Origin: Oxalobacteraceae bacterium
GTDB taxonomy: Bacteria > Pseudomonadota > Gammaproteobacteria > Burkholderiales > Burkholderiaceae_D
Direction of reading: 5' to 3'
DNA length: 64,000 nt
Assembly (NCBI GenBank): GCA_947374865.1
Contig: CANCDR010000010.1
Location: 20,319-84,318 of the forward strand
Positions within the stretch are counted from its first letter, which is position 1; each line of letters starts with the position of its first letter. This document shows positions 4,232 to 38,057 of this stretch, one piece after another. A model generated the notes under the pieces. That model made no database searches. It had not been told where the DNA came from and saw nothing but the letters and a program-made list of their open reading frames with translations. The position numbers and the translations under genes were made by a program.

Positions 4232-4426
4232 GGGCAAGTCCTGCCAGCACTGCTCGGCAACGAACCGGGACAAGGTCTCAGCAATCTTGACGATGCGCCG
4301 CTGGCAGAAATCATAGGCCGCGTTCCCTGGGCAGCAGAAGTATTTAATTACAGTGCGCCCGATACCGGCAACATGGAATTGCTGCAGATGTTCGGCAGCC
4401 ATGAACAAAAAAGTCGCTGGCTCAAG
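4232..4426 (+). pseudogene. Remnant (~65 codons) of an acyl-CoA dehydrogenase (ACAD10/11-like) gene
   Basis: The frame-2 translation between stops reads [51 protein letters not shown]. This matches the conserved N-terminal ACAD block (..GLSNLEYAPLAE..GR...[14 protein letters not shown]...G...QK..WL.PLL). Similarity stops at WLK and there is no upstream or downstream continuation. Confidence 0.65.
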
Positions 4427-4542
4427 CAAACGAAGAAGCAACGAAAGTCTTCCTACGGATCATCATGCCGCCATCAGTGCTGCCACGATAAACCTGATTT
4501 TTTACCTTTGCCGAGGCATGTCTAAAGTTGAGTAGCCATGCT

Positions 4543-4992
4543 TTAGCCGATTTCGGTATCTGTGGCGAACTTAAGATTACGCCGCAAAACTACCGGCGTG
4601 CCGCCATAAGCCCGTTTTGCCATCCATTGTGCCAGCGGCGCATCGAGATAGTCGGCATGTCCTGGAAACCAGCGCACCAGTTCTGCGACCAGAGGACGAC
4701 AGCGTTCAACCAAGCCATCCTGACTGAGTTGGGCAATAACTTCACGGGTCGACTTCATGACCGCGGCATGCTCATCTACATGGCAATCCGTGGCAGGAAA
4801 GGCCGTCGAGATCATCCATTGTTTTTCTTGCTCGAAATGCTGCTCAAGGTGCTCAGCAAAATGTTTTAGCGCCGGCAAAAACGCTGACTCCGTCGCATTC
4901 AGCAGCGTCTGCACCCGCTCAACAAACTCATGGTGCGTATCATCCATCGGGCCGTAGCCAAGCAAAAAAGCGTCATTCCATTCAAATTCCAA
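4543..4992 (-). CDS. Bacteriohemerythrin / hemerythrin-like metal-binding protein
   Basis: 149 aa. It opens with FEWNDAFLLGYGPMDDTHHEFV, followed by HFAEHLEQHFEQE and CHVDEHAAV (His/Glu ligand pattern of hemerythrin). Confidence 0.85.
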   Translation of the reverse strand: MEFEWNDAFLLGYGPMDDTHHEFVERVQTLLNATESAFLPALKHFAEHLEQHFEQEKQWMISTAFPATDCHVDEHAAVMKSTREVIAQLSQDGLVERCRPLVAELVRWFPGHADYLDAPLAQWMAKRAYGGTPVVLRRNLKFATDTEIG

Positions 4993-5035
4993 TTGATTCT
5001 TTCATTTTTCAAAAGCATCAGCTTATCACTTGCTT

Positions 5036-5070
5036 AGCTTGTGGGGTCAAGTCTTGACATGACAGTTTTT
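5036..5070 (+). repeat. Copy 1 of the 28-nt element (variant GGGGTCAAGTCTTGACATGACAGTTTTT) with shared left flank AGCTTGT
   Basis: Direct reading. It matches 5151..5186 except for one A/G difference. Confidence 0.9.
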
Positions 5071-5150
5071 AAGCAAATCTCCCAGCTGCGTTGAGCACCA
5101 TTGATCGCCATTTATAGGGAAAGTGTTGACTCAAATAAGCCTTGTATTGT

Positions 5151-5186
5151 AGCTTGTGGGGTCAGGTCTTGACATGACAGTTTTTT
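5151..5186 (+). repeat. Copy 2 of the 28-nt element GGGGTCAGGTCTTGACATGACAGTTTTT
   Basis: Direct reading. It lies 54 nt upstream of the 5240 start codon. Confidence 0.9.
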
Positions 5187-5239
5187 AAATTTTTCCCACG
5201 CAAAACGCGTCCGCATTTACTCTTGCAACAATCAAACCA

Positions 5240-6370
5240 ATGCAAATACACATATTATTTTCACTTTTTCTCTTGTCGATTTTTCTCTCGCCTGCCGTCG
5301 GCGCAGATGTGCGCTTAAAAGATCTGCATGTACCGTCCGGTTTTAAGATCGAGGTTTTGACCGACGCTGTTCCCAACGCTCGGCAAATGGCGATCGGCGG
5401 CAATGTGGACGGGCGCACGGTGCTTTACGTTGGCAGCATGAAGGCTGGCAAGGTCTATGCGGTGGAGCTGGAAAAGGGGCAGGCGGTAAAAGTACACACA
5501 ATTGCCACCGACCTGCAGCTGCCCGTCGGACTAGCTTATCGCGATGGCAATTTGTATGTTTCCGCGGTATCCAGCATCTTGCGGTTTGAGCATATCGATA
5601 GCCGGCTAGCCAATCCGCCCAAGCCCCTCGTCATCACCGACCGCTTTCCACCAGAAACGCACCACGGCTGGAAATTTATCGCCTTCGGTCCCGATGGATG
5701 GCTGTACGTTCCGGTCGGCGCGCCTTGTAATATTTGCGATCCTGATCCGCGCTATGCCAATATTCAACGCATGAAGCCCGACGGTAGTGCGCTCGAAACC
5801 GTCGCCCGCGGCGTGCGCAATTCTGTGGGATTTGACTGGAATCCGCTCGATCAAAGTTTGTGGTTCACGGAAAATGGCCGCGACATGATGGGCGACGACA
5901 TGCCCAATGATGAGCTCAATCATCTTGAAAAATCGGGCCAGCATTTTGGCTATCCCTATTGTCATCAAGGCGATACGCCGGATCCGGAATTCGGCGCGAA
6001 GCGTCAATGCGGAGAATTTACACCGCCGGTGATCAAACTCGGCGCGCATGTCGCCTCCCTGGGAATGCGCTTTTACACCGGCAAACAATTTCCACAGGAA
6101 TATCGGAATAATATCTTTATCGCAGAACACGGCTCATGGAACCGCAGCATCAAAGTGGGCTACCGCATCGTGCGCGTCGCCTTGGATCCTGCTGGTCGTG
6201 TTTTGAAGCACGAGCCATTTGTGGATGGCTGGCTATACAAGGACGCTAGTGGCAAAGAGCTTGCTTGGGGACGTCCTGCAGATGTCCTCAATATGCCTGA
6301 TGGCTCATTGCTCATTAGTGATGATTTGGCAGGAGTCATTTATCGCGTGCGCTATGTTGGCGCGCAATAA
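5240..6370 (+). CDS. PQQ-dependent sugar dehydrogenase / sorbosone dehydrogenase family protein, secreted
   Basis: 376 aa with an N-terminal signal peptide (MQIHILFSLFLLSIFLSPAVGA). Family-typical blocks: HHGWKFIAFGPDGWLYVPVGAPCN, WFTENGRDMMGDDMPNDELNHL, GQHFGYPYCHQG. Confidence 0.85.
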   Translation: MQIHILFSLFLLSIFLSPAVGADVRLKDLHVPSGFKIEVLTDAVPNARQMAIGGNVDGRTVLYVGSMKAGKVYAVELEKGQAVKVHTIATDLQLPVGLAYRDGNLYVSAVSSILRFEHIDSRLANPPKPLVITDRFPPETHHGWKFIAFGPDGWLYVPVGAPCNICDPDPRYANIQRMKPDGSALETVARGVRNSVGFDWNPLDQSLWFTENGRDMMGDDMPNDELNHLEKSGQHFGYPYCHQGDTPDPEFGAKRQCGEFTPPVIKLGAHVASLGMRFYTGKQFPQEYRNNIFIAEHGSWNRSIKVGYRIVRVALDPAGRVLKHEPFVDGWLYKDASGKELAWGRPADVLNMPDGSLLISDDLAGVIYRVRYVGAQ

Positions 6371-6393
6371 ATAAGTTTGATGCATGACAACTT

Positions 6394-6422
6394 AAAAAAC
6401 TGTCATGTCAAGACCTGACCCC
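6394..6422 (-). repeat. Copy 3 of the 28-nt element, inverted orientation
   Basis: The + strand reads AAAAAACTGTCATGTCAAGACCTGACCCC. It overlaps the stop codon of the glycosyltransferase ORF. Confidence 0.9.
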
Positions 6423-7238
6423 ATGGTTTTTTAGGCCGCGGCTTGCTTCGATGGTGCGGTTTTGTGCGCGTGCGAGTACGAGGTCGCGGTTGCTTGATGC
6501 TTGGTCACGTTGGGCTTCGCGGTGCCAGAGGTGGAATACTTCGGTGGCGAAGGCGCCGTCTTTGCGCATCACGCCGGCGTTGAATAGCCTTACTACCAGG
6601 TCCGAATCTTCATGGCCCCAGCCGAGGAAGCTTTCATCAAAGCCATTTACGAGCGCCAAATCGCTGCGCCAGACACCCAGATTACAGCTCTTGATACGAC
6701 GCCAGCTAAAGCTTCGGCGTTCACGCCCCAAGTCAGGCCAGCGTAGCACCCACTGCAACAGTTTGTTGACGTGACCTTGCAAACGCCAACCTAGTTTGCT
6801 TGCCAGAGGAACGCGCGAGAGGTCGATCCCTTCGGCCATGACACGCTCGCTCAGTGCCGCACTCATGAGCACCCTGCTCCCCGAGACCAGAAAACCAGGT
6901 CGCGCCAGCTGGCGGTGACGCGCGACAAAATCACGTTGGGGTATGCAGTCCCCATCCAGAAAAACAATATACGCACCATGCGCTGCCAATGTGCCACGAT
7001 TGCGCGCCATCGCCGCACGAAAGCCTTCATCACTTTGCCAAACATGCACCAGCGACACCGGCGACTCAGCCCGCAAGCGGTCGATCATTTCCCTTGTGTT
7101 GGCAGTGGAGCCGTCATCGGCGATAATGATTTCAAAATGCTTCTCACTCTGCACAAAACAGGCCCGAATCACCGTCTCGAGCGCATCGGGTCGGTTATAT
7201 GTCGTAATGACAAGAGAAATAGTCGCGTCTAGATGCAT
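6408..7238 (-). CDS. Family 2 glycosyltransferase
   Basis: 276 aa. GT2 signature ISLVITTYNRPDALE...IIIADDGS...FLDGDCIP and a C-terminal GWGHEDSDL block. The last four codons plus the stop lie inside repeat copy 3. Confidence 0.85.
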   Translation of the reverse strand: MHLDATISLVITTYNRPDALETVIRACFVQSEKHFEIIIADDGSTANTREMIDRLRAESPVSLVHVWQSDEGFRAAMARNRGTLAAHGAYIVFLDGDCIPQRDFVARHRQLARPGFLVSGSRVLMSAALSERVMAEGIDLSRVPLASKLGWRLQGHVNKLLQWVLRWPDLGRERRSFSWRRIKSCNLGVWRSDLALVNGFDESFLGWGHEDSDLVVRLFNAGVMRKDGAFATEVFHLWHREAQRDQASSNRDLVLARAQNRTIEASRGLKNHGVRS

Positions 7239-7294
7239 GCTGTTTGATCGAACTTTTCACATACCAAAACAGCAGATTACCTATTTAAAGTTGC

Positions 7295-8551
7295 ATGAAC
7301 AATAGACTCAAGCAAATAATTTCACCAAAGCAGCTGGTCGCGGGCCTACTGGTGTTTTTGCTGCCATTTCTCAGCCTCGTGACCCTGTGGGGCGTGAGTG
7401 GCGTCAGCTTCGGCATTGCGGCTGTCGCTGCGCTGATCATCATCACCGGCCAGGGACGCAGCGTGATGGCACCACATTGGCGCGCCGTGCGTCCGGTGTG
7501 CTTGGCTTTCCTGCTTCATTTTCTATTCACTCTGGCTTGTCTGATTCTGCGTAGCGAGGCAATCCTGTCCGCGCTCGAAAGGCCGGCGCGCATGTTGTTG
7601 GCAATATCTGCGCTGATGCTGGTTTTGTGGGCACGTCCCGATCGTCGATTTCTTTGGTGGGGCGTTGCCGGCGGTGCCTTGGCGGGTGCTTTTCTGGTCG
7701 GTTATCAGAGGCTCGGTCTGGACATGGATCGTCCCGGTGGTTTGATGAATGCGATCACCTTTGGCGATATGTCGCTCTGTCTGGGTTTGATTTCGATCGC
7801 CGCCATGATCGACCAGCGCAGCGCGCGACAAATGATATGGCCCATCATCGGTCTGATCGCCGGTCTGGCCGGATCGGTCATGACAGGCACGCGGGGTGGC
7901 TGGCCTGCGTTGGCGTTGGCGGCTGTGATCATGGTTCGCTATAGTCATGCGCTCAATAGTCGGCGTGTGCGTGCCTGGGTAATCGTGAGTTTTGTCTTGG
8001 TCGGCGCTACCTATTTCATCCCTGGCAGCGGCGTGAGCGAGCGCGTCGACGAAGGTATCGCCGGGATCAGCAGTTATTTTAATGGTGGAAGTGTCTTCAC
8101 CATCATGGGTATCCGGCTCGAGCTCTGGAAGAGCGCCAGCATGCTGATCGCCGAACATCCCCTGCTGGGTATCGACTACCAGGCCGCTGCTGTGCGTATG
8201 ACCGAATGGGTCGCTGCAGGTCGTCTGGATCCCGTGGTACTGACCATGCCGCACTTACACAATGAATACTTACAGAAATGGGTGACGGGCGGTGCCGTCG
8301 GTTTGGTGATCTGGCTAGCGACCCTGATCACCCCAATAATTTTTTTCGCCCGCCAGCTCGCTCCAGGTGCTCAAGCAAACAAAACCGTCATCGCCTGCGC
8401 CCTCGCCGGCCAATTCGTCGTCACGAGCTATCTGTGCTTTGGCCTCACCGAAGTCATCTTCTGGTCAGTCAAAGCCAGCCTCTTCTATGCACTCATGGTC
8501 TTCCTACTCATGGGCCTCTGCCTCAACGAAACCCCTGGGGTCAGGTCTTGA
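7295..8551 (+). CDS. O-antigen ligase (Wzy_C) family membrane protein
   Basis: 418 aa and polytopic (about 10 or more hydrophobic segments). It has a Wzy_C-like central loop region (..GTRGGWPALALAAV..) and is divergent from the GT2 gene. The last four codons plus the stop lie inside repeat copy 4. Confidence 0.75.
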   Translation: MNNRLKQIISPKQLVAGLLVFLLPFLSLVTLWGVSGVSFGIAAVAALIIITGQGRSVMAPHWRAVRPVCLAFLLHFLFTLACLILRSEAILSALERPARMLLAISALMLVLWARPDRRFLWWGVAGGALAGAFLVGYQRLGLDMDRPGGLMNAITFGDMSLCLGLISIAAMIDQRSARQMIWPIIGLIAGLAGSVMTGTRGGWPALALAAVIMVRYSHALNSRRVRAWVIVSFVLVGATYFIPGSGVSERVDEGIAGISSYFNGGSVFTIMGIRLELWKSASMLIAEHPLLGIDYQAAAVRMTEWVAAGRLDPVVLTMPHLHNEYLQKWVTGGAVGLVIWLATLITPIIFFARQLAPGAQANKTVIACALAGQFVVTSYLCFGLTEVIFWSVKASLFYALMVFLLMGLCLNETPGVRS

Positions 8552-8564
8552 CATGACAGTTTTT
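8537..8564 (+). repeat. Copy 4 of the 28-nt element
   Basis: Direct reading: GGGGTCAGGTCTTGACATGACAGTTTTT. Confidence 0.9.
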
Positions 8565-8672
8565 CACAATCGATTAGCCGCATCTGCAACGCCACACACG
8601 CCCGGCGAATTAAATAGTACCAACGCATTCAATCCGCACTAATCGCACATCAGCCAATTCACCAGCAGGCTA

Positions 8673-8700
8673 AAAAACAAAAAAGCCTACAAGCTTGTGA
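8673..8700 (+). repeat. Left copy of a 28-bp direct repeat AAAAACAAAAAAGCCTACAAGCTTGTGA
   Basis: 27/28 identical to 16392..16419 in the same orientation. Sequence beyond CTTGTGA diverges. Confidence 0.9.
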
Positions 8701-8737
8701 TCTATACGCCTTTTTTCTCTATCGAATGCCCGTTTGA

Positions 8738-11710
8738 TTAGCCGTGCAAGCTGATCAGTCCACCCGGCGACACTGATGTCGCTACAGTAAACGAATAAAT
8801 ACCAATCAATTCAACGACAGAGTCATTCATCGAGATTGCCGAAGAACTAATATCATGCGCACTGACGATATACGTATTTCCTTGGAATACGAAAGCTTCC
8901 AAACTGCCATTATTTGAGGCGCTAGCAGCCCCAGTCGCCGCTGAAGCCATATTTGCCGCAGTCAACCATGTCGATAAAGACCTCGCATCCCCCGCAACAT
9001 TGGTAATTGTGTTGATTATCCCCATTCGCAGTAAATTATTATTTAATGTCATCGTCAGGGTATCTGAGGAAGTGGCCGTGTTGTTCAAGCCTGAAATAGT
9101 GCTGTAATGTATTCCATCAGTTATACCGACCGTCACCGCATCATGGGTAAAATTAGAGTGAGCGCCTAATTTAATTGTCAATGCATCACCCAATCCTGCG
9201 GCAATAATAGTTGCTGACCCACTACCAACTGTAATATTCCCAGACACGCCATTGCCGCTGGCTTTGATCGTTCCAAGTCCACCGTTACCCAGTGTGATAT
9301 CAATCGTGCCGACAGAGGATGTCATAACAGAATTATTGGCGCCATCACCTAAGTTCACTGTTTGGCTAGAACCAACAACGCCCGAACCTAAAATCACCGT
9401 ATCGTAAGCGCCATTCCCCATCGTGACTTTTACGACGTTTCCTGCTGCTGTGGCACCTGATAATGTCACGTAATTATGCGTTCCTGCATTGCCAGATACA
9501 TCCTTTGTCGTGATGCTGACATTGCCTACGGAGGCACCAGTTACATAGTCACCCAAGCCAGAACCTAATGCGACGACTTGAGTGGACCCAGCAACACCTG
9601 GTCCTAAAGTAACATAATCACCGATTCCATTTCCCATGGTTATGGTGTTCGTTGCTGTCGCTGAGGTTGCGCCAGCCAAGGTCGCATAATCGCCCGCACC
9701 ATTGCCAAATGTCAGCGTAACGTTGCCTGTAGATACAACCGTAGCATAATCGCCTACGCCAGCGCCCAAGGTGAAATTAATCGATCCGGCAGCAACAGCA
9801 GCACTGGTAATGTAATCACCCGCACCATTTCCCAGAATTACGGTTTGATTGCCAACATCTGAAGCACTAGACAAAACGACATAGTCCCCTGCATTCCCAC
9901 CCATTTTTACAGAATCGTTCGCAGCTGAAGCAAGCGTCACCGCTGTCCAAGCAGAAGCCACAGCATTGGCTGCATTAGTAGCCAAAATTCCCGCCGCAGT
10001 CACGGCATTCGTTGCAGCCAAGTCATCTGTCGTCACTGTTGTGAGCTTCGTTACCGCTATTAAGTTCGCCGCTGCCGTCACCGCTGATGCGGCTAAAGTC
10101 TGCGCGTCCAAGGCATTCTTCGATGCCAGTGTGGCAGCATCAACCGAGGCATTAGTCAAAGTAAGCGTGGTTGCAGAATCCGCTGCGGCGGTGGCCTTAG
10201 CAGCGTTTAACGTTGCCAAGGTTGCCGCCGTAACTGCACTATTCGCAGATGCGGTGTAAGTCGACAAGGCCAAATCCGCGTTCGCTTCACGCGACAATTC
10301 TAGGCTCACGACGGATAAATTGGTATTTGCTTTAGATAAGGCACTCTCAGCAGCAAGGACAACATTTTTAGCCTTCGTCACCATTACAGTCGCTGCATCG
10401 ACTGCGCTCGTCCCTGCGTCATCGTCGGTAAGAATCTTGGTAAGAACAGTCGCTGCTTTGTAAGTCGTGGCGGATGACATCACGCCTTTAGCCGCATCTT
10501 GGTAAGCATCGGCATTTGACTTTGCCAGCGTCGCCGCTGTGACGTATGCATTGGCATTCGCCAGTGATGTCGCAGCAAGATTTGCAGCAGATGTGGCCAA
10601 GTCACCATTCACGGTAGCCGCATCAGCAGCAGATGCAGCAAACAATTTAGCATTGTTAAAGCTGCCCAAGACTATCACCGCATTTTGTTCGTTGGCGACA
10701 TCTTTAGTCGCCTGTTGGGAATCTAGATTTGCTTGTAGCTTCCCTTGAACGCTGGCATTTTCTGCTGCAGCGACTACTTTTTGCTGACCCGCAGTAACGG
10801 CACTTGCCGCGACTGATTTTGACAATTTCGTCACCGCAATAGCGTTACTTGCCGCCACATCATCCGAGGTATCGCTAGTGGCATCCGTAGCAGCTTTCAA
10901 TTCGGCAGCAGCAGTCGATGCCAACGCAGCATAAGCAAAATAAGTTGCCGCTGTTGATGAAGCCAGATTTGCCGCAACAGTGGCCACTGCCGCCAAGGGA
11001 ACCGTGTTAGCAGCAAGTGCTGCATTATCAGCAGCAAGGGCAGCACTTGTAGCGGCGGTCGCATAAGTATTGACGTTTGCTGCAGCAATGCCGTAATTCT
11101 TCAAGGCAGATGTCGCGCTTATCGCCTTAAGAGCTTGCATGGCAGCGATTGCTTCGGCATTTGCTGTATCTGTCGCAGCGCGATAACCGGCATCAGCCGA
11201 ATAAGAAGCGGCAGCATTTGCAGCAGTGACGTCAGTCGATGTCACCAGTTTAAGAATGGCCGTAGCATCAGTTACGCTAGTGCCTTGTAATGTTGCGCCA
11301 AAATTTAAGGCAACCGCGACTTTATTCATAAACAGCGCTTGTGAGATATAGCCAGCTGCATCATTGCCAGCGTAATCCAAAACAGCAGCAATGAGTTTAA
11401 CGACAACGCCGCCAACACTGGCACCAGAGGCATTCAGTTCTGCAGTCCAATGCGCGAGTCCCTCAGCATCTGGCATGCGTCCCAGAACATTGGTATAGAA
11501 GTTAGTAACGATTTGTCCATTATTCAAATTCAATGGGTAAATCGTGCGTGCGGCTTCTGTTGTATACATTTGTTGTGCAATGGAGGAAAAGCTTGCCCCC
11601 TTGCCCATCAGGTCAACCCAGAAAGCCAAACCACTCGCTTCAGGGGCGCGTGCAAACAGGGATACGTAGAGTTGTGTTACTTGCGTCGTCATTGCGCTAT
11701 GCATAGCCAT
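8738..11710 (-). CDS. Large leaderless surface/secreted-type protein: N-terminal DUF4214-like module, Ala/Thr-rich central region, G-x-G-x-GDY repeat block, distinct C-terminal domain
   Basis: 990-aa ORF with no signal peptide and no Cys. N-terminal motifs are LYVSLFARAPEASGLAFWVDLM and FYTNVLGRMPDAEGLAHWTAEL. Repeats include GNAGDYVVL, GNGAGDYITS, GAGVGDYATV, GNGAGDYATL, GNGIGDYVTL, GSGLGDYVTG. Confidence 0.8.
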   Translation of the reverse strand: MAMHSAMTTQVTQLYVSLFARAPEASGLAFWVDLMGKGASFSSIAQQMYTTEAARTIYPLNLNNGQIVTNFYTNVLGRMPDAEGLAHWTAELNASGASVGGVVVKLIAAVLDYAGNDAAGYISQALFMNKVAVALNFGATLQGTSVTDATAILKLVTSTDVTAANAAASYSADAGYRAATDTANAEAIAAMQALKAISATSALKNYGIAAANVNTYATAATSAALAADNAALAANTVPLAAVATVAANLASSTAATYFAYAALASTAAAELKAATDATSDTSDDVAASNAIAVTKLSKSVAASAVTAGQQKVVAAAENASVQGKLQANLDSQQATKDVANEQNAVIVLGSFNNAKLFAASAADAATVNGDLATSAANLAATSLANANAYVTAATLAKSNADAYQDAAKGVMSSATTYKAATVLTKILTDDDAGTSAVDAATVMVTKAKNVVLAAESALSKANTNLSVVSLELSREANADLALSTYTASANSAVTAATLATLNAAKATAAADSATTLTLTNASVDAATLASKNALDAQTLAASAVTAAANLIAVTKLTTVTTDDLAATNAVTAAGILATNAANAVASAWTAVTLASAANDSVKMGGNAGDYVVLSSASDVGNQTVILGNGAGDYITSAAVAAGSINFTLGAGVGDYATVVSTGNVTLTFGNGAGDYATLAGATSATATNTITMGNGIGDYVTLGPGVAGSTQVVALGSGLGDYVTGASVGNVSITTKDVSGNAGTHNYVTLSGATAAGNVVKVTMGNGAYDTVILGSGVVGSSQTVNLGDGANNSVMTSSVGTIDITLGNGGLGTIKASGNGVSGNITVGSGSATIIAAGLGDALTIKLGAHSNFTHDAVTVGITDGIHYSTISGLNNTATSSDTLTMTLNNNLLRMGIINTITNVAGDARSLSTWLTAANMASAATGAASASNNGSLEAFVFQGNTYIVSAHDISSSAISMNDSVVELIGIYSFTVATSVSPGGLISLHG

Positions 11711-13110: not shown

Positions 13111-14624
13111 GTGACTTGCGCTAATAAGGGTAGGCGTACAACAAATAAACTGCCCACGCCTACCTCACTGAATTCCACATTGATCGTTCCCTTGAGTTGC
13201 GCCACAATGGTGTGCGAAATGGATAAGCCGAGTCCTGTCCCCTGCCCTACAGGTCGAGTGGTAAAAAAGGGGTCGAATAACTTCGCCATAAGAGCAGGCG
13301 CAATGCCGCAGCCAGCATCACGCACGGAAAATACCGCCTCGTCATGCTCTTTCAGCATAGATACGATCACATCGCCACCGGTCGGCATTGACTGAGCGGC
13401 GTTTAAAATCAGATTCATCATCACCTGCCTTAGTAGACTTTCATTCCCCAACACAAATACAGGTGGATCTTCGTAGACTTCCAAAAAATTTATCTTGGTG
13501 AGCTTTGCTTGTGGCGTCAGAAAACTGACCGTATCTCGCGCCAAGTTGACAAGGTTGACTGATTCAATTTGATCGATAGTGGAAGGACGCGCAAAACGCA
13601 GCAAATTTTCAATAATCACAGAAGAGCGTTCAATGCCATCCACTATTTTCTTTACGCATGCCTGTTGAAACACGGCATCAATTTCTGGCTCGAGTAAAAA
13701 CTGCGCAGCCGAATAACTGACTGCCAGCGGATTACGCAACTCATGCGCTATCCCGCCGGCCATGACGCCAAGCGCAGCTAGTTTTTCTGACTGTCGTAGA
13801 TGCTCCTCTAGAGCACGGCTTTCAGACAAATCCTTACCCACAGCGACGAATCCATTGACCATACCAAAGTCGTCACGGATCGACGAAAACAACCATTTCA
13901 CCGGTATTCGCAATCCTGAACGGGTAACAAGATTAAGCTCCAAAAATGTTACCGTACCGCTTGTGACCAGTTCTCGAATCTGGCTCGACTCAGACTGCGT
14001 TGTCTCCCAAAAATCGCTTGACATACGACCTTGTACATCCTTTAAGCTATAACCAGAAATTCGTTCCGCATTAGCATTCCAACTGGTAATCATGCCATTA
14101 AAATCCGTTACGATAACTAGGTCGTTGCCACTTTCAATGACGCCCTCTAAATAACGTAAGTCCATTCTGGCTTTTGCACTGACCCTCAATTTTTCGGTAA
14201 CATCATCTAGTACAAGCATGACATTTTCAATGCTGTCTCCTGATTTTACCGGTATTAAGGTATACAAATAAATCCGGAGGGGCATCTTTGGCTGGCGATA
14301 AGTCATCAACGCACTGGGGATCACTACACCCTTGTCAAATAGTTTCGTAATGGCTGTTTCTAGCTGCGAAATTTCTAAGCCATCATCAGGCATGAGATCG
14401 CGCAAGCGCATGCCAACAGCACACCCTTCAGGACGACCAAAATTTTGATCAGCATGCCATTTTTCCGATATGACGCAAAGTGAGGGGTCGATAAGAATGA
14501 GTGAAAAAGGTAGGTTTTGCAAAAGCAGGTTGTACATTTTTTCATGCCATCCCGCCTCATGCAATACTGATGGCGGAATGTTCGCTACACTATTCGCCAA
14601 GCTACTAAGTTCGGGATTATTCAA
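13107..14624 (-). CDS. Cytoplasmic PAS-domain sensor histidine kinase
   Basis: 505 aa with no obvious TM segments. PAS-like regions are followed by the H-box GIAHELRNPL and HATPase_c motifs (N-box LILNAAQS, G-boxes RDAGCGI and GTGLGLSI). Confidence 0.85.
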   Translation of the reverse strand: MNNPELSSLANSVANIPPSVLHEAGWHEKMYNLLLQNLPFSLILIDPSLCVISEKWHADQNFGRPEGCAVGMRLRDLMPDDGLEISQLETAITKLFDKGVVIPSALMTYRQPKMPLRIYLYTLIPVKSGDSIENVMLVLDDVTEKLRVSAKARMDLRYLEGVIESGNDLVIVTDFNGMITSWNANAERISGYSLKDVQGRMSSDFWETTQSESSQIRELVTSGTVTFLELNLVTRSGLRIPVKWLFSSIRDDFGMVNGFVAVGKDLSESRALEEHLRQSEKLAALGVMAGGIAHELRNPLAVSYSAAQFLLEPEIDAVFQQACVKKIVDGIERSSVIIENLLRFARPSTIDQIESVNLVNLARDTVSFLTPQAKLTKINFLEVYEDPPVFVLGNESLLRQVMMNLILNAAQSMPTGGDVIVSMLKEHDEAVFSVRDAGCGIAPALMAKLFDPFFTTRPVGQGTGLGLSISHTIVAQLKGTINVEFSEVGVGSLFVVRLPLLAQVT

Positions 14625-14723
14625 GGGGAAATCCTTGTTGGACGTAGGTTTTAAAATAGGGGCAGCGTCTTGCTCGGATCACATCCCGACATTGCGCGTT
14701 TGCAGTACATTTAAATCGGCTCA

Positions 14724-35090: not shown

Positions 35091-35527
35091 TGGCGCAGCT
35101 CACGCGTAAGACTGGCCGGATCGACGACTTTTTCGACCACTTTTTCAACCACTACAAAGGCCACCGCGTAGTCGACCTCATCGCTGATACTCACCTGCGC
35201 GATCAAACCATTCTGGGTCATGAAGTCAGCCAGCACGCCGCTAGTCAACGCCACCGGTTTGCCACTTGATGTATTGAGAACCTGCATGGCACGCCAGCTC
35301 ATGGGCATACGCATGCCCAAACCGAGCGCTTTCGAAAACGCTTCCTTGGCGGCGAAGCGAGTCGCCAGATAGCGCACGCCACGCGAAGCCACTTTGGCAC
35401 TGCGACGCTGATACTCCTGCAATTCTTCTGGACCTAAAATTTTTTCAGCCAGCCGGTGTCCTCTGCGCGCGAGACTATCCATCAGACGCGCAATCCGCAG
35501 GATGTCGGTGCCAATGCCGTAGATCAC
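35087..35527 (-). CDS. acpS: Holo-[acyl-carrier-protein] synthase
   Basis: [14 protein letters not shown]..., [12 protein letters not shown]. The GTG at 35527 overlaps the pdxJ stop (GTGA). The longer ORF to 35593 runs into pdxJ. Confidence 0.85.
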
Positions 35528-36291
35528 ACCCGGCTCGCCGACAGTCGTGCCTGCAGCATAATGGCCTTCATCTCGCGCACGGCATTTTCCCAACCCACAA
35601 ACAGCGCGTGGGCAACGATGGCATGGCCGATATTGAGCTCAACAATATCCGGTAAGGCGGCGATGGCCTGTACGTTCGTGTAATGTAAGCCGTGTCCTGC
35701 GTTGACGATCAGGCCATGCTGCACACCGCGCAACACACCTTCTCGAACACGTTGTAACTCGATCTCTTGTTCGTGTGCGTTGTGCGCATCGGCGTAGCGT
35801 CCGGTGTGTAATTCAATGACCGGTGCGCCGGCTTCGGCTGCTGCGGCGATTTGCTCATCATCGGCATCGATAAATAAAGAGACACGAATACCGGCCTCGC
35901 TGAGCTGCCGCACTGCCGCCTGCACTTTAGTGAAATGCGACCGAACATCGAGCCCGCCTTCGGTGGTGATCTCGGCCCGATTTTCCGGTACCAGACACAC
36001 GTCTTGCGGTAATACGCGGCAGGCAAAATCGAGCATGGCATTCGTTACCGCCGATTCAAAATTCATGCGCGTGGTGAGCTGCGCGCGAATGATTTCGACG
36101 TCGGCGTCCTTGATATGCCGTCGGTCTTCGCGCAGATGGAGGGTGATACCGTCAGCGCCCGCCTGCTCGGCCAGTAAGGCGGCCTTAAGCGGATCAGGGT
36201 ACGTCGTGCCGCGCGCATTCCGCAGGGTCGCCACATGATCGATATTGACACCGAGGGCGAGAGTGCCGGGAACTGGGGAGAGAAAGCTCAT
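35524..36291 (-). CDS. pdxJ: Pyridoxine 5'-phosphate synthase
   Basis: [47 protein letters not shown]. Confidence 0.95.
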
Positions 36292-37154: not shown

Positions 37155-38057
37155 TTATTCGTAGCCGTAGGCGCGTAATCCAGCTTCATTATCTGCCCAA
37201 CCTGATTTTACCTTGACCCAGACTTCCAGGTACACCGGCCCGCCAAACAGCTTTTCCATGTCGAGGCGCGATTGGGTGGAGATCTCTTTTAATCGTGCGC
37301 CCTTCTGGCCGATCAGCATCGACTTATGGCTGTCGCGTTGCACCAGGATGGCGATGAAGATCCGCCGCAAATTGCCTTCCTGTTCGAATTTTTCGAGCAT
37401 GACGGTGCTGGTATAGGGCAGCTCGTCACCGACCAGACGAAAGACTTTTTCACGCACGATTTCGGTGGCGAGAAACTTTTCGCTGCGATCCGTAATGTCG
37501 TCTTCATCGAAGATGGCGGCATTTTCTGGCAGTATTTTGCGGATCTCACCTTGCAGACTATCGAGCTGAAAGCGCAGCTTGGCCGAGACCGGCACGATGG
37601 CCACAAAATTATGCAGGGCCGCGACTTTTTGCGCGAACGGCATCAGCGCGCCCTTATCCTTGATGTAGTCGGATTTATTAATCACCAACACGCAAGGTAC
37701 GTCGTCCGGGATCAGGTCGAGCACCTGTTGATCAGCTTCGCCGAACATGCCGGCCTCGACGATGAACAGGATGACATCCGATGCGATCAGGGTATTGGTG
37801 ACGGTCTTGTTCAGATTCTTGTTCAGCGCGTGGGTGTGGCGAGTCTGAAAGCCCGGCGTATCAACATAGATAAACTGCGCATCGGCCTCAGTCTGGATGC
37901 CAGTAATCCGGTGGCGCGTCGTTTGCGCCTTGCGTGACGTGATGCTGACCTTGGCGCCGATGAGCGCATTCATGAGTGTGGATTTGCCCACATTCGGCCG
38001 GCCAACGATGGCGATATAGCCGCAACGGAAAGGGGTACTGCTAGGAGTTTGGGTCAT
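37155..38057 (-). CDS. era: GTPase Era
   Basis: G1 motif [17 protein letters not shown] and a C-terminal KH domain. Overlaps the rnc stop. Confidence 0.95.

Follow-up and report, generated by a model that had tools for sequence, protein, structure and literature searches.

Two unrelated genes that lie side by side in the genome of an Oxalobacteraceae bacterium end in the same four residues and the same stop codon, and both do so inside a 28-nt element that recurs nearby. The locus raises the question of what this element is and whether it acts on the genes around it. The stretch analyzed here (the window) comprises 64,000 nt of contig 10 (CANCDR010000010.1, positions 20,319 to 84,318) of assembly GCA_947374865.1, which totals 3.27 Mb in 44 contigs. 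The original prediction, made from the letters of the window, described four copies of the element and proposed three explanations: a small mobile or repetitive extragenic palindromic (REP)-like element at gene ends, a recombination site that allows cassette inversion, or an operator shared by envelope genes. We favor the first, and hold with a probability of roughly 85% that the four copies are dispersed repeats of the REP or REPIN (REP doublet forming a hairpin) kind, copies of the terminal inverted repeat (TIR) of a TIRtron, i.e., of the Y1 HUH transposase type variously called TIRYT, REP-associated tyrosine transposase (RAYT) Group 1 or TnpA-Y1 subclass 2.1. The element is selfish or domesticated DNA of a known kind, not a switch or an operator. 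The copies and the genes beside them are as follows.

5043-5070, + strand: copy 1, REP/TIR singlet, exact match, A variant GGGGTCAAG
5158-5185, + strand: copy 2, REP/TIR singlet, exact match, G variant
5240..6370, + strand: GSDH or sorbosone-dehydrogenase-like gene, 376 amino acids (Pfam GSDH, E = 4e-15)
6395-6422, - strand: copy 3, REP/TIR singlet, exact match, G variant
6408..7238, - strand: GT2 glycosyltransferase gene, 276 amino acids (Pfam Glycos_transf_2, E = 1e-22)
7295..8551, + strand: O-antigen-ligase-family gene, 418 amino acids (Pfam Wzy_C, E = 5e-14)
8537-8564, + strand: copy 4, REP/TIR singlet, exact match, G variant

The 28-mer GGGGTCARGTCTTGACATGACAGTTTTT matches these four sites without a single mismatch and was found in none of 100 dinucleotide-preserving shuffles of the window, which excludes chance. 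The predicted cores are therefore real, and the one variable base is indeed A in copy 1 and G in the remaining three; the ranges first given for copies 1 and 2 (from 5036 and 5151) had taken in part of a left flank that these two copies have in common, the 8-nt TAGCTTGT at 5035-5042 and 5150-5157. Both copies lie in the intergenic gap between a hemerythrin-like gene (- strand) and the divergent GSDH-like gene, copy 2 with its head (the GGGG end) directed away from the latter and its tail 55 nt upstream of the start codon. Copies 3 and 4 occupy gene ends: the GT2 and ligase genes each run 15 nt into a copy, so that the head forms their final codons, GGG GTC AGG TCT TGA, and both proteins close with the element-encoded G-V-R-S-stop that had been predicted.

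The repeat is a family of about 88 copies dispersed over the genome. Searches with the 23-nt core gave 77 matches at up to 2 mismatches (38 forward and 39 reverse, against 0 for the reversed control pattern), and searches with the 18-nt head GGGGTCAGGTCTTGACAT gave 88 at up to 3 mismatches, 79 of them exact. The head reads (T)GGGGTCAGG and lacks both GTAG and CGTC. Of these copies, 62 are paired into 31 inverted doublets, the heads pointing out and the tails in; the doublets measure 60-62, 69-72 or 91-94 nt and, as hairpins, have folding energies of -33 to -34 kcal/mol (z about -12). The doublets make up subfamilies with related spacers, the interiors being 61-83% identical within a subfamily and the heads 99-100% identical to the master sequence. 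The 26 non-doublet copies are concentrated in three places—28.9-37.5 kb of contig 6, the window and contig 31—and several copies of the family stand at contig ends, as expected because repeats break assemblies. In this genome 81 of 85 copies have T before GGGG; since the flanks in other organisms differ, being mostly AAA or ATC, we rejected T as a universal target base and consider it a probable feature of the lineage's master copy.

What ties this family to a transposase is the company that the repeat keeps. A Pfam Y1_Tnp search of the genome returned two genes.

Contig 6, 35247-36095, outside the window: intact Y1 transposase gene, 282 amino acids (Pfam Y1_Tnp, E = 1e-12)
Contig 32, 13921-14646 (L001:1147-1872, - strand): second Y1 transposase gene, 241 amino acids (REP-transposase model, 79.5 bits, just below the cut-off)

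The contig 6 gene is bracketed head-out by copies of the repeat at C6:35159(+) and C6:36112(-). Its product passes the NCBIfam model NF047646 for REP-associated tyrosine transposases (82.3 bits, cut-off 80), and the HUH motif N59-H60-Y-H62 together with the catalytic tyrosine, Y119, is invariant in a six-sequence alignment. A C-terminal segment that resembles a helix-turn-helix (HTH), GY..L.EI....G.HYSTVS..VK, is conserved among orthologues; the corresponding Pfam HTH_23 match is below threshold (E = 0.025, 14.8 bits against a cut-off of 24.6), and a PDB sequence search with the protein gave no match at E up to 0.01.

The same association recurs far beyond this genome, at 15 or more orthologous loci. 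In other Burkholderiales (G037, G030, G038 and G014), inverted repeats starting with GGGGTCAG enclose orthologues 43-56% identical, and in the first three the common head extends to GGGGTCAGGTCTT. Scans for the exact 23-mer located 25 loci in public genomes and 54 in metagenomes, the hosts including alpha-, beta- and gammaproteobacterial metagenome-assembled genomes (MAGs), Desulfurivibrio dismutans and a Desulfobulbaceae MAG. We examined 22 orthologue loci from metagenomes and from proteobacterial genomes (alpha, beta and unclassified), with genes 47-59% identical and mostly of 282 amino acids: a near-identical 23-26-nt end lies on both sides of the gene at 10 and on one side at six more. Seven loci have GGGGTCAGGTCTTGACATGACAGTTT as the end, exactly or with a change at position 25 alone. 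The pairing of repeat and transposase is specific and evolutionarily persistent, and the head is under strong selective retention. Other genomes with the repeat carry 1-13 copies, this one 83 by the same criterion. Of 40 relatives, 39 lack the repeat, a same-genus genome among them. The second transposase is flanked by an inverted repeat of its own, AATTAAGTAGGGTCAGAGTCGACTTAATT, which is not found in the window; its family of about 45 copies, often in alternating clusters, reads AAGTAGGGTCAGAGTCGA, contains GTAG and has the GGGTCAG core in common with the first family. As the two transposases are flanked by different repeats, each is paired with its own.

These findings bear on whether the element might instead be a miniature inverted-repeat transposable element (MITE) of a DDE transposon, for example of the Tn3 family, whose 38-bp inverted repeats also start with GGGG. 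The GGGGTC start of the inverted repeats and the miniature size of the doublets (60-94 nt) would suit such an origin, which is nevertheless extremely improbable: 28 of 29 doublets lack a target-site duplication, the Tn3-type transposase domain PF01526 was not found in the genome, and the Y1 transposase is the only gene that the repeat consistently brackets across many genomes. On the first two of these grounds a Tn3-type MITE was rejected.

Which kind of Y1 transposase system this is can be read from published surveys. Some tyrosine transposase genes have TIRs sharing GGGGWSAS on either side in place of GTAG REPs; Di Nocera et al. (2013, PMC3733652), who reported them, introduced the names TIRYTs for the enzymes and TIRtrons for the units. 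The TIR consensus is given as GGGG[AT][CG]A[CG] (PMC3733652, PMC6006769), and the TIR families are moderately abundant in a few species, as singles, dimers and clusters (PMC3733652). TIRYTs correspond to TnpA-Y1 subclass 2.1 and to RAYT Group 1 and have a C-terminal HTH-like domain (Quentin et al., 2018, PMC6006769). The system described here agrees with them in its Y1/HUH transposase with a C-terminal extension (those of the type have about 240-300 amino acids), in the flanking TIRs with a GGGGWSAS start, here GGGGTCAG, and in the dispersal of the repeat as singles, dimers and clusters. In BLASTP comparisons with sequences from Additional file 5 of PMC3733652, the contig 6 protein is 39-43% identical to the TIRYTs sml_1152, psu_2716, sml_4509 and gbm_2474 (E = 1e-32 to 1e-38), as against 29% to the classical RAYT pfs_3939 (E = 2e-14) and 21% to eco b228 (E = 0.03). 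Because GGGGTCAG fits GGGGWSAS and the protein is nearer to the TIRYTs, we assign the element to the TIRYT/TIRtron kind, with REPIN-like behavior, rather than to the classical GTAG REPs.

The behavior is REPIN-like in several respects. As in the classical REP/REPIN-RAYT systems—the REPs and bacterial interspersed mosaic elements (BIMEs) of E. coli with TnpA-REP, and the REPINs of Pseudomonas (Bertels and Rainey, 2011, PMC3116915)—a short imperfect palindrome is repeated tens to hundreds of times, mostly outside genes, inverted doublets form hairpins and have spacers in common within subfamilies, one single-copy Y1 transposase gene is flanked by the repeat, the repeats lie mostly downstream of genes, and their termini sometimes supply stop codons, as is known of GTAG REPs, which can give stops to neighboring open reading frames (ORFs) (PMC3733652). 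The transposase, however, belongs to a different subclass from theirs, and the repeat is patchy among relatives yet identical in distant taxa, a distribution more suggestive of horizontal spread than of strictly vertical inheritance. The exact repeat sequence was not found in a relevant context in the literature searched.

Several observations weigh against our assignment. The repeat lacks the GTAG/CGTC tag of classical REPs, and its single unit makes a poor hairpin next to the better REP stem: the halves GGTCAGGTCT and TGACATGACA form the predicted imperfect palindrome, complementary at 7 of 10 positions, and as single-stranded DNA one unit folds at only -3.0 kcal/mol (z = -1.6, not significant). 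The family is also atypically large for its class, since Group 1 and subclass 2.1 have been reported without REP populations or with weak association. There are about 88 copies in 3.3 Mb here, whereas no REP-like sequences were seen near subclass 2.1 genes (PMC6006769) and REPIN association was limited to RAYT Groups 2 and 3 (Bertels et al., 2017, PMC5581495). The identical 23-26-nt end in distant phyla is at odds with a purely vertical REPIN-RAYT picture, and the conservation of heads above interiors could reflect a host function rather than recognition by the transposase. Finally, neither transposition events nor empty sites were observed: the joined flanks of five doublets, searched against the same-genus genome and four family members, gave only non-syntenic coding matches at 72-74% identity, and none of the 54 metagenome loci with the repeat is close to this genome (best identity 82%).

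If the repeats are mobile DNA, the identical protein endings should follow from where they land, and the position of the heads relative to genes is strongly biased. With genes called by a longest-ORF heuristic, so that single distances may be off while overlaps of -15 and -20 nt are exact by construction, 53 of 84 scorable heads face the 3' end of a gene at a median of +8 nt, and 31 face a 5' end at a median of 167 nt. Thirty-four of the 84 lie within -31..+26 nt of the stop codon that they face, an enrichment of about five-fold over the 7.5% expected from random intergenic placement (p about 6e-17, a value computed although the two heads of one doublet are not independent). Convergent intergenic regions hold 14 of 38 elements and make up 15% of all intergenic regions. 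The eleven heads that stand 6-10 nt past a stop all follow TAA, which accounts for 48% of the genome's stops (p = 3e-4); the flanks of heads are A-rich at -9..-5 and C/G-rich at -4..-2, which hints at a bias toward A-rich DNA immediately beyond genes. The genome-wide search thus bears out the prediction of a small mobile or REP-like element at gene ends: the family is dispersed, linked to a Y1 transposase and enriched at stop codons.

The reading frames of the head account for the rest. Frame 0 is GGG GTC AGG TCT TGA, frame 2 is GGT CAG GTC TTG ACA TGA and frame 1 is open; with stops in two of three forward frames, insertion into dispensable last codons is tolerated and the tail becomes GVRS or GQVLT. 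Of the long ORFs in the genome that run into a head, ten stop there in frame 0, with GVRS, and four in frame 2, with WGQVLT; about three pass through it in frame 1, and hardly any gene enters the repeat from the tail side. The GVRS-ending proteins are unrelated to one another: a YhgA-like protein, an FMN-dependent dehydrogenase, GalE, an unannotated ORF of 667 amino acids, and the GT2 and ligase of the window. The identical endings of the last two arise because a repeat on the last codons supplies the stop, and are a by-product rather than a functional motif in common. In other organisms 178 heads gave 8 ORFs ending GVRS and 10 ending GQVL(T/R), and in Desulfurivibrio and the Desulfobulbaceae MAG one doublet lies between convergent genes that both end ..EGVRS-stop.

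Orthologues without the repeat have different native tails, as the original prediction had suggested checking. The closest named matches of the GT2 are in Massilia/Telluria at about 74% identity. Conservation among its orthologues extends as far as ..GL(K/R)xH, beyond which come unrelated tails of 0-25 amino acids; a GVRS ending is seen only in the window protein and its 96%-identical relative. The nearest 39 ligase orthologues listed end ..LNAKExDGK in 29 cases and mostly in close variants otherwise, and the window protein ends ..LNETPGVRS at equal length. Since that conserved tail is of equal length and different sequence, the native ligase tail has been overwritten. Small repeats that join an ORF, add residues or a stop and leave a surviving protein are also represented by the Rickettsia palindromic elements and the Neisseria Correia elements; these are other repeat families with different or unknown mobilizing enzymes, and here only the last 4-6 residues are contributed.

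The window copies themselves have stayed in place. Six metagenome contigs from a close relative, whose GT2 is 96% identical, carry all four copies at matching positions and orientations and in matching gene order. The cores are identical, copy 4 included, except for the variable base of copy 1, which is G in the relative, and the intergenic sequence beside the copies has diverged, with indels. The flank TAGCTTGT is specific to the window's genome, and copy 2 of the relative is preceded by AAAACCCCCCT plus 19 extra nucleotides; on this comparison of sequences the flank common to copies 1 and 2 points to local deletion or conversion rather than to a longer element. The tail of copy 3 is adjoined by a 9-10-bp complement, TTGTCATG, which may be the remnant of a second arm; the complement is not present in the close relative. 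Two of the relative's contigs, L021 (1873-3063) and L022 (1670-2901), have the ligase called as two ORFs (223+159 and 188+220 amino acids) and a third, L023, has it intact at 415 amino acids; a frameshift, pseudogene formation or an error of assembly could lie behind the splits.

Retention of this sort raises the possibility that what chiefly maintains the repeats is a role for the host at mRNA 3' ends, doublets serving as stabilizers, terminators or brakes on translation termination and singlets doing so more weakly—a proposal that is compatible with an origin from the transposase. It draws on the enrichment of heads on or just past stops and the excess of convergent regions, on doublet hairpins of about -33 kcal/mol, on heads conserved at 99-100% while interiors drift, and on the four copies kept in the relative despite diverged flanks. 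Liang, Rudd and Deutscher reportedly found in 2015 that a REP of E. coli lowers expression, through ribosome stalling and tmRNA, when it lies no more than about 15 nt from a stop. We nevertheless regard it as rather unlikely. The window copies are singlets without significant RNA structure (z-scores of +0.9 to -1.4 at the four sites), a terminator scan was blank at all four, in line with the predicted absence of a normal intrinsic terminator (a GC-rich stem followed by a U-tract), and Rfam gave no match in 4400-9000 at E up to 1. Copies 1 and 2, moreover, lie in the 5' region between divergent genes, and the absence of the family from 39 of 40 relatives means that no conserved host process depends on the repeat.

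The second proposal, that inverted copies are recombination sites at which the GSDH or the GT2/ligase cassette flips as a phase-variation switch of the envelope, starts from a geometry that we confirm. Copies 2 (+) and 3 (-) bracket the GSDH-like gene head-out and tail-in, just as the repeats bracket the transposase gene, and copies 3 (-) and 4 (+) bracket the divergent GT2/ligase pair, so that whole envelope genes lie between inverted copies 1.2 and 2.1 kb apart. The bracketing arises, however, because three neighboring gene ends each bear a copy of a repeat that is found about 88 times in the genome. No recombinase gene or domain was recognized among the annotated neighbors, the window and the six independent contigs of the relative all have one arrangement, and inversion would carry whole genes together with their promoters, so nothing would be switched; the 28-bp identity of the copies, moreover, is at the lower limit for RecA-dependent exchange. 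Cassette inversion is without support and, in our judgment, very improbable.

The same geometry could recall a cargo held between paired singlets, with the GSDH-like gene mobilized like the transposase gene; this is a low-probability speculation. The gene is accessory and patchy among relatives, and the same-genus genome G001 lacks it. In GC content it matches the genome mean, and none of its homologues in other genomes is flanked by the repeat, and we regard a foreign cargo as unsupported on these grounds.

The third proposal took the pentamers GGTCA GGTCT TGACA TGACA for paired half-sites of a regulator that co-ordinates the envelope genes. The pentamers do resemble half-sites, the weak C-terminal helix-turn-helix signal of the transposase could reflect binding to double-stranded DNA, and every copy contains, in the head-to-tail direction, a perfect sigma-70 -35 hexamer, TTGACA (in the window at 5169-5174 and 8548-8553). 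A promoter scan of the window copies, however, found no -10 hexamer at proper spacing from it. Two of the four window copies (3 and 4) sit on gene 3' ends, the median distance of heads is 167 nt from 5' ends as against 8 nt from 3' ends, and the genes that neighbor the roughly 88 copies are functionally unrelated. These facts contradict an operator specific to envelope genes, which we hold to be a most unlikely reading.

With the TIRtron reading preferred, a mechanism can be proposed by analogy with E. coli TnpA-REP and the IS200/IS605 elements. The transposase would recognize the imperfect hairpin GTCA-G-GT-CTTG-AC-A-TGAC of the head on single-stranded DNA, cleave beside the head and copy doublets to new sites without duplications. 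Singlets, the four of the window included, would be half-elements or decayed doublets. Insertions would survive where they do the least harm, just past a gene or on its final codons, and the built-in stops would help.

Other irregularities of the family stand beside this scheme as observations in their own right. In five places the flank of a head carries a stutter, GGGGTCA followed by 5-9 nt, (G/C)(C/A)T and the full head, e.g., gctGGGGTCAcatacgctGGGGTCAGG; slippage, or a transposase reaction that was broken off, may have left these traces.

C2:115052: head stutter in the flank of a head
C26:27580: head stutter in the flank of a head
C25:2272: head stutter in the flank of a head
C26:9890: head stutter in the flank of a head
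C1:11977: head stutter in the flank of a head

On contig 6, at 37383-37513, four heads stand in direct tandem at 24-43-nt spacing downstream of the 667-amino-acid ORF, the first of them supplying its GVRS-stop. Each of the three singlet clusters contains surface-polysaccharide genes: Polysacc_synt_2 and GalE at C6:27588-37124, GT2 and the ligase at 6408-8551 of the window, and a Stealth-family gene at C31:16445-17458. Because the clusters also hold unrelated genes (CorA, FMN dehydrogenase), the association with polysaccharide genes may be coincidence.

On its opposite strand the repeat reads ATG TCA AGA CCT GAC CCC and so offers a spurious start, M-S-R-P-D-P. An M24-peptidase ORF at C31:6745-8103 (-) seemingly begins MSRPDP.., its true start being probably the downstream MKKYLL.. 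of a signal peptide, and a spurious ORF of 119 amino acids at C6:31199-31558 (-) contains ..SCQDLTP... The repeat is thus an annotation hazard that generates both false starts and false ORFs.

Taken further, the parts of the argument can be joined into a bolder picture, to which we give little credence as a whole: TIRYT and repeat would be a very old, tightly matched pair that moves horizontally, given that the same 26-nt end adjoins transposases only 47-60% identical to this one across several classes and phyla; a roughly ten-fold, REPIN-like expansion of the pair would have taken place in the present Oxalobacteraceae lineage; the head, which has stops in two frames and can replace gene tails without harm, would be shaped to land on stop codons; and pairs of singlets would mobilize the genes between them.

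For the envelope genes of the window, the finding means that there is no sign of regulation or rearrangement by the repeats. Its interest is moderate and lies in the doublet population, unusually large for the class, in the end that is invariant across phyla and in the recurrent rewriting of gene tails, which explains the GVRS and GQVLT endings of unrelated proteins here and in other phyla. If the reading is true, a REPIN-like population exists in a transposase class said to have none, and the system offers a clean example of a Group 1, subclass 2.1 (TIRYT) transposase with a sizeable doublet population, its repeat end a well-defined 26-nt substrate for biochemistry.

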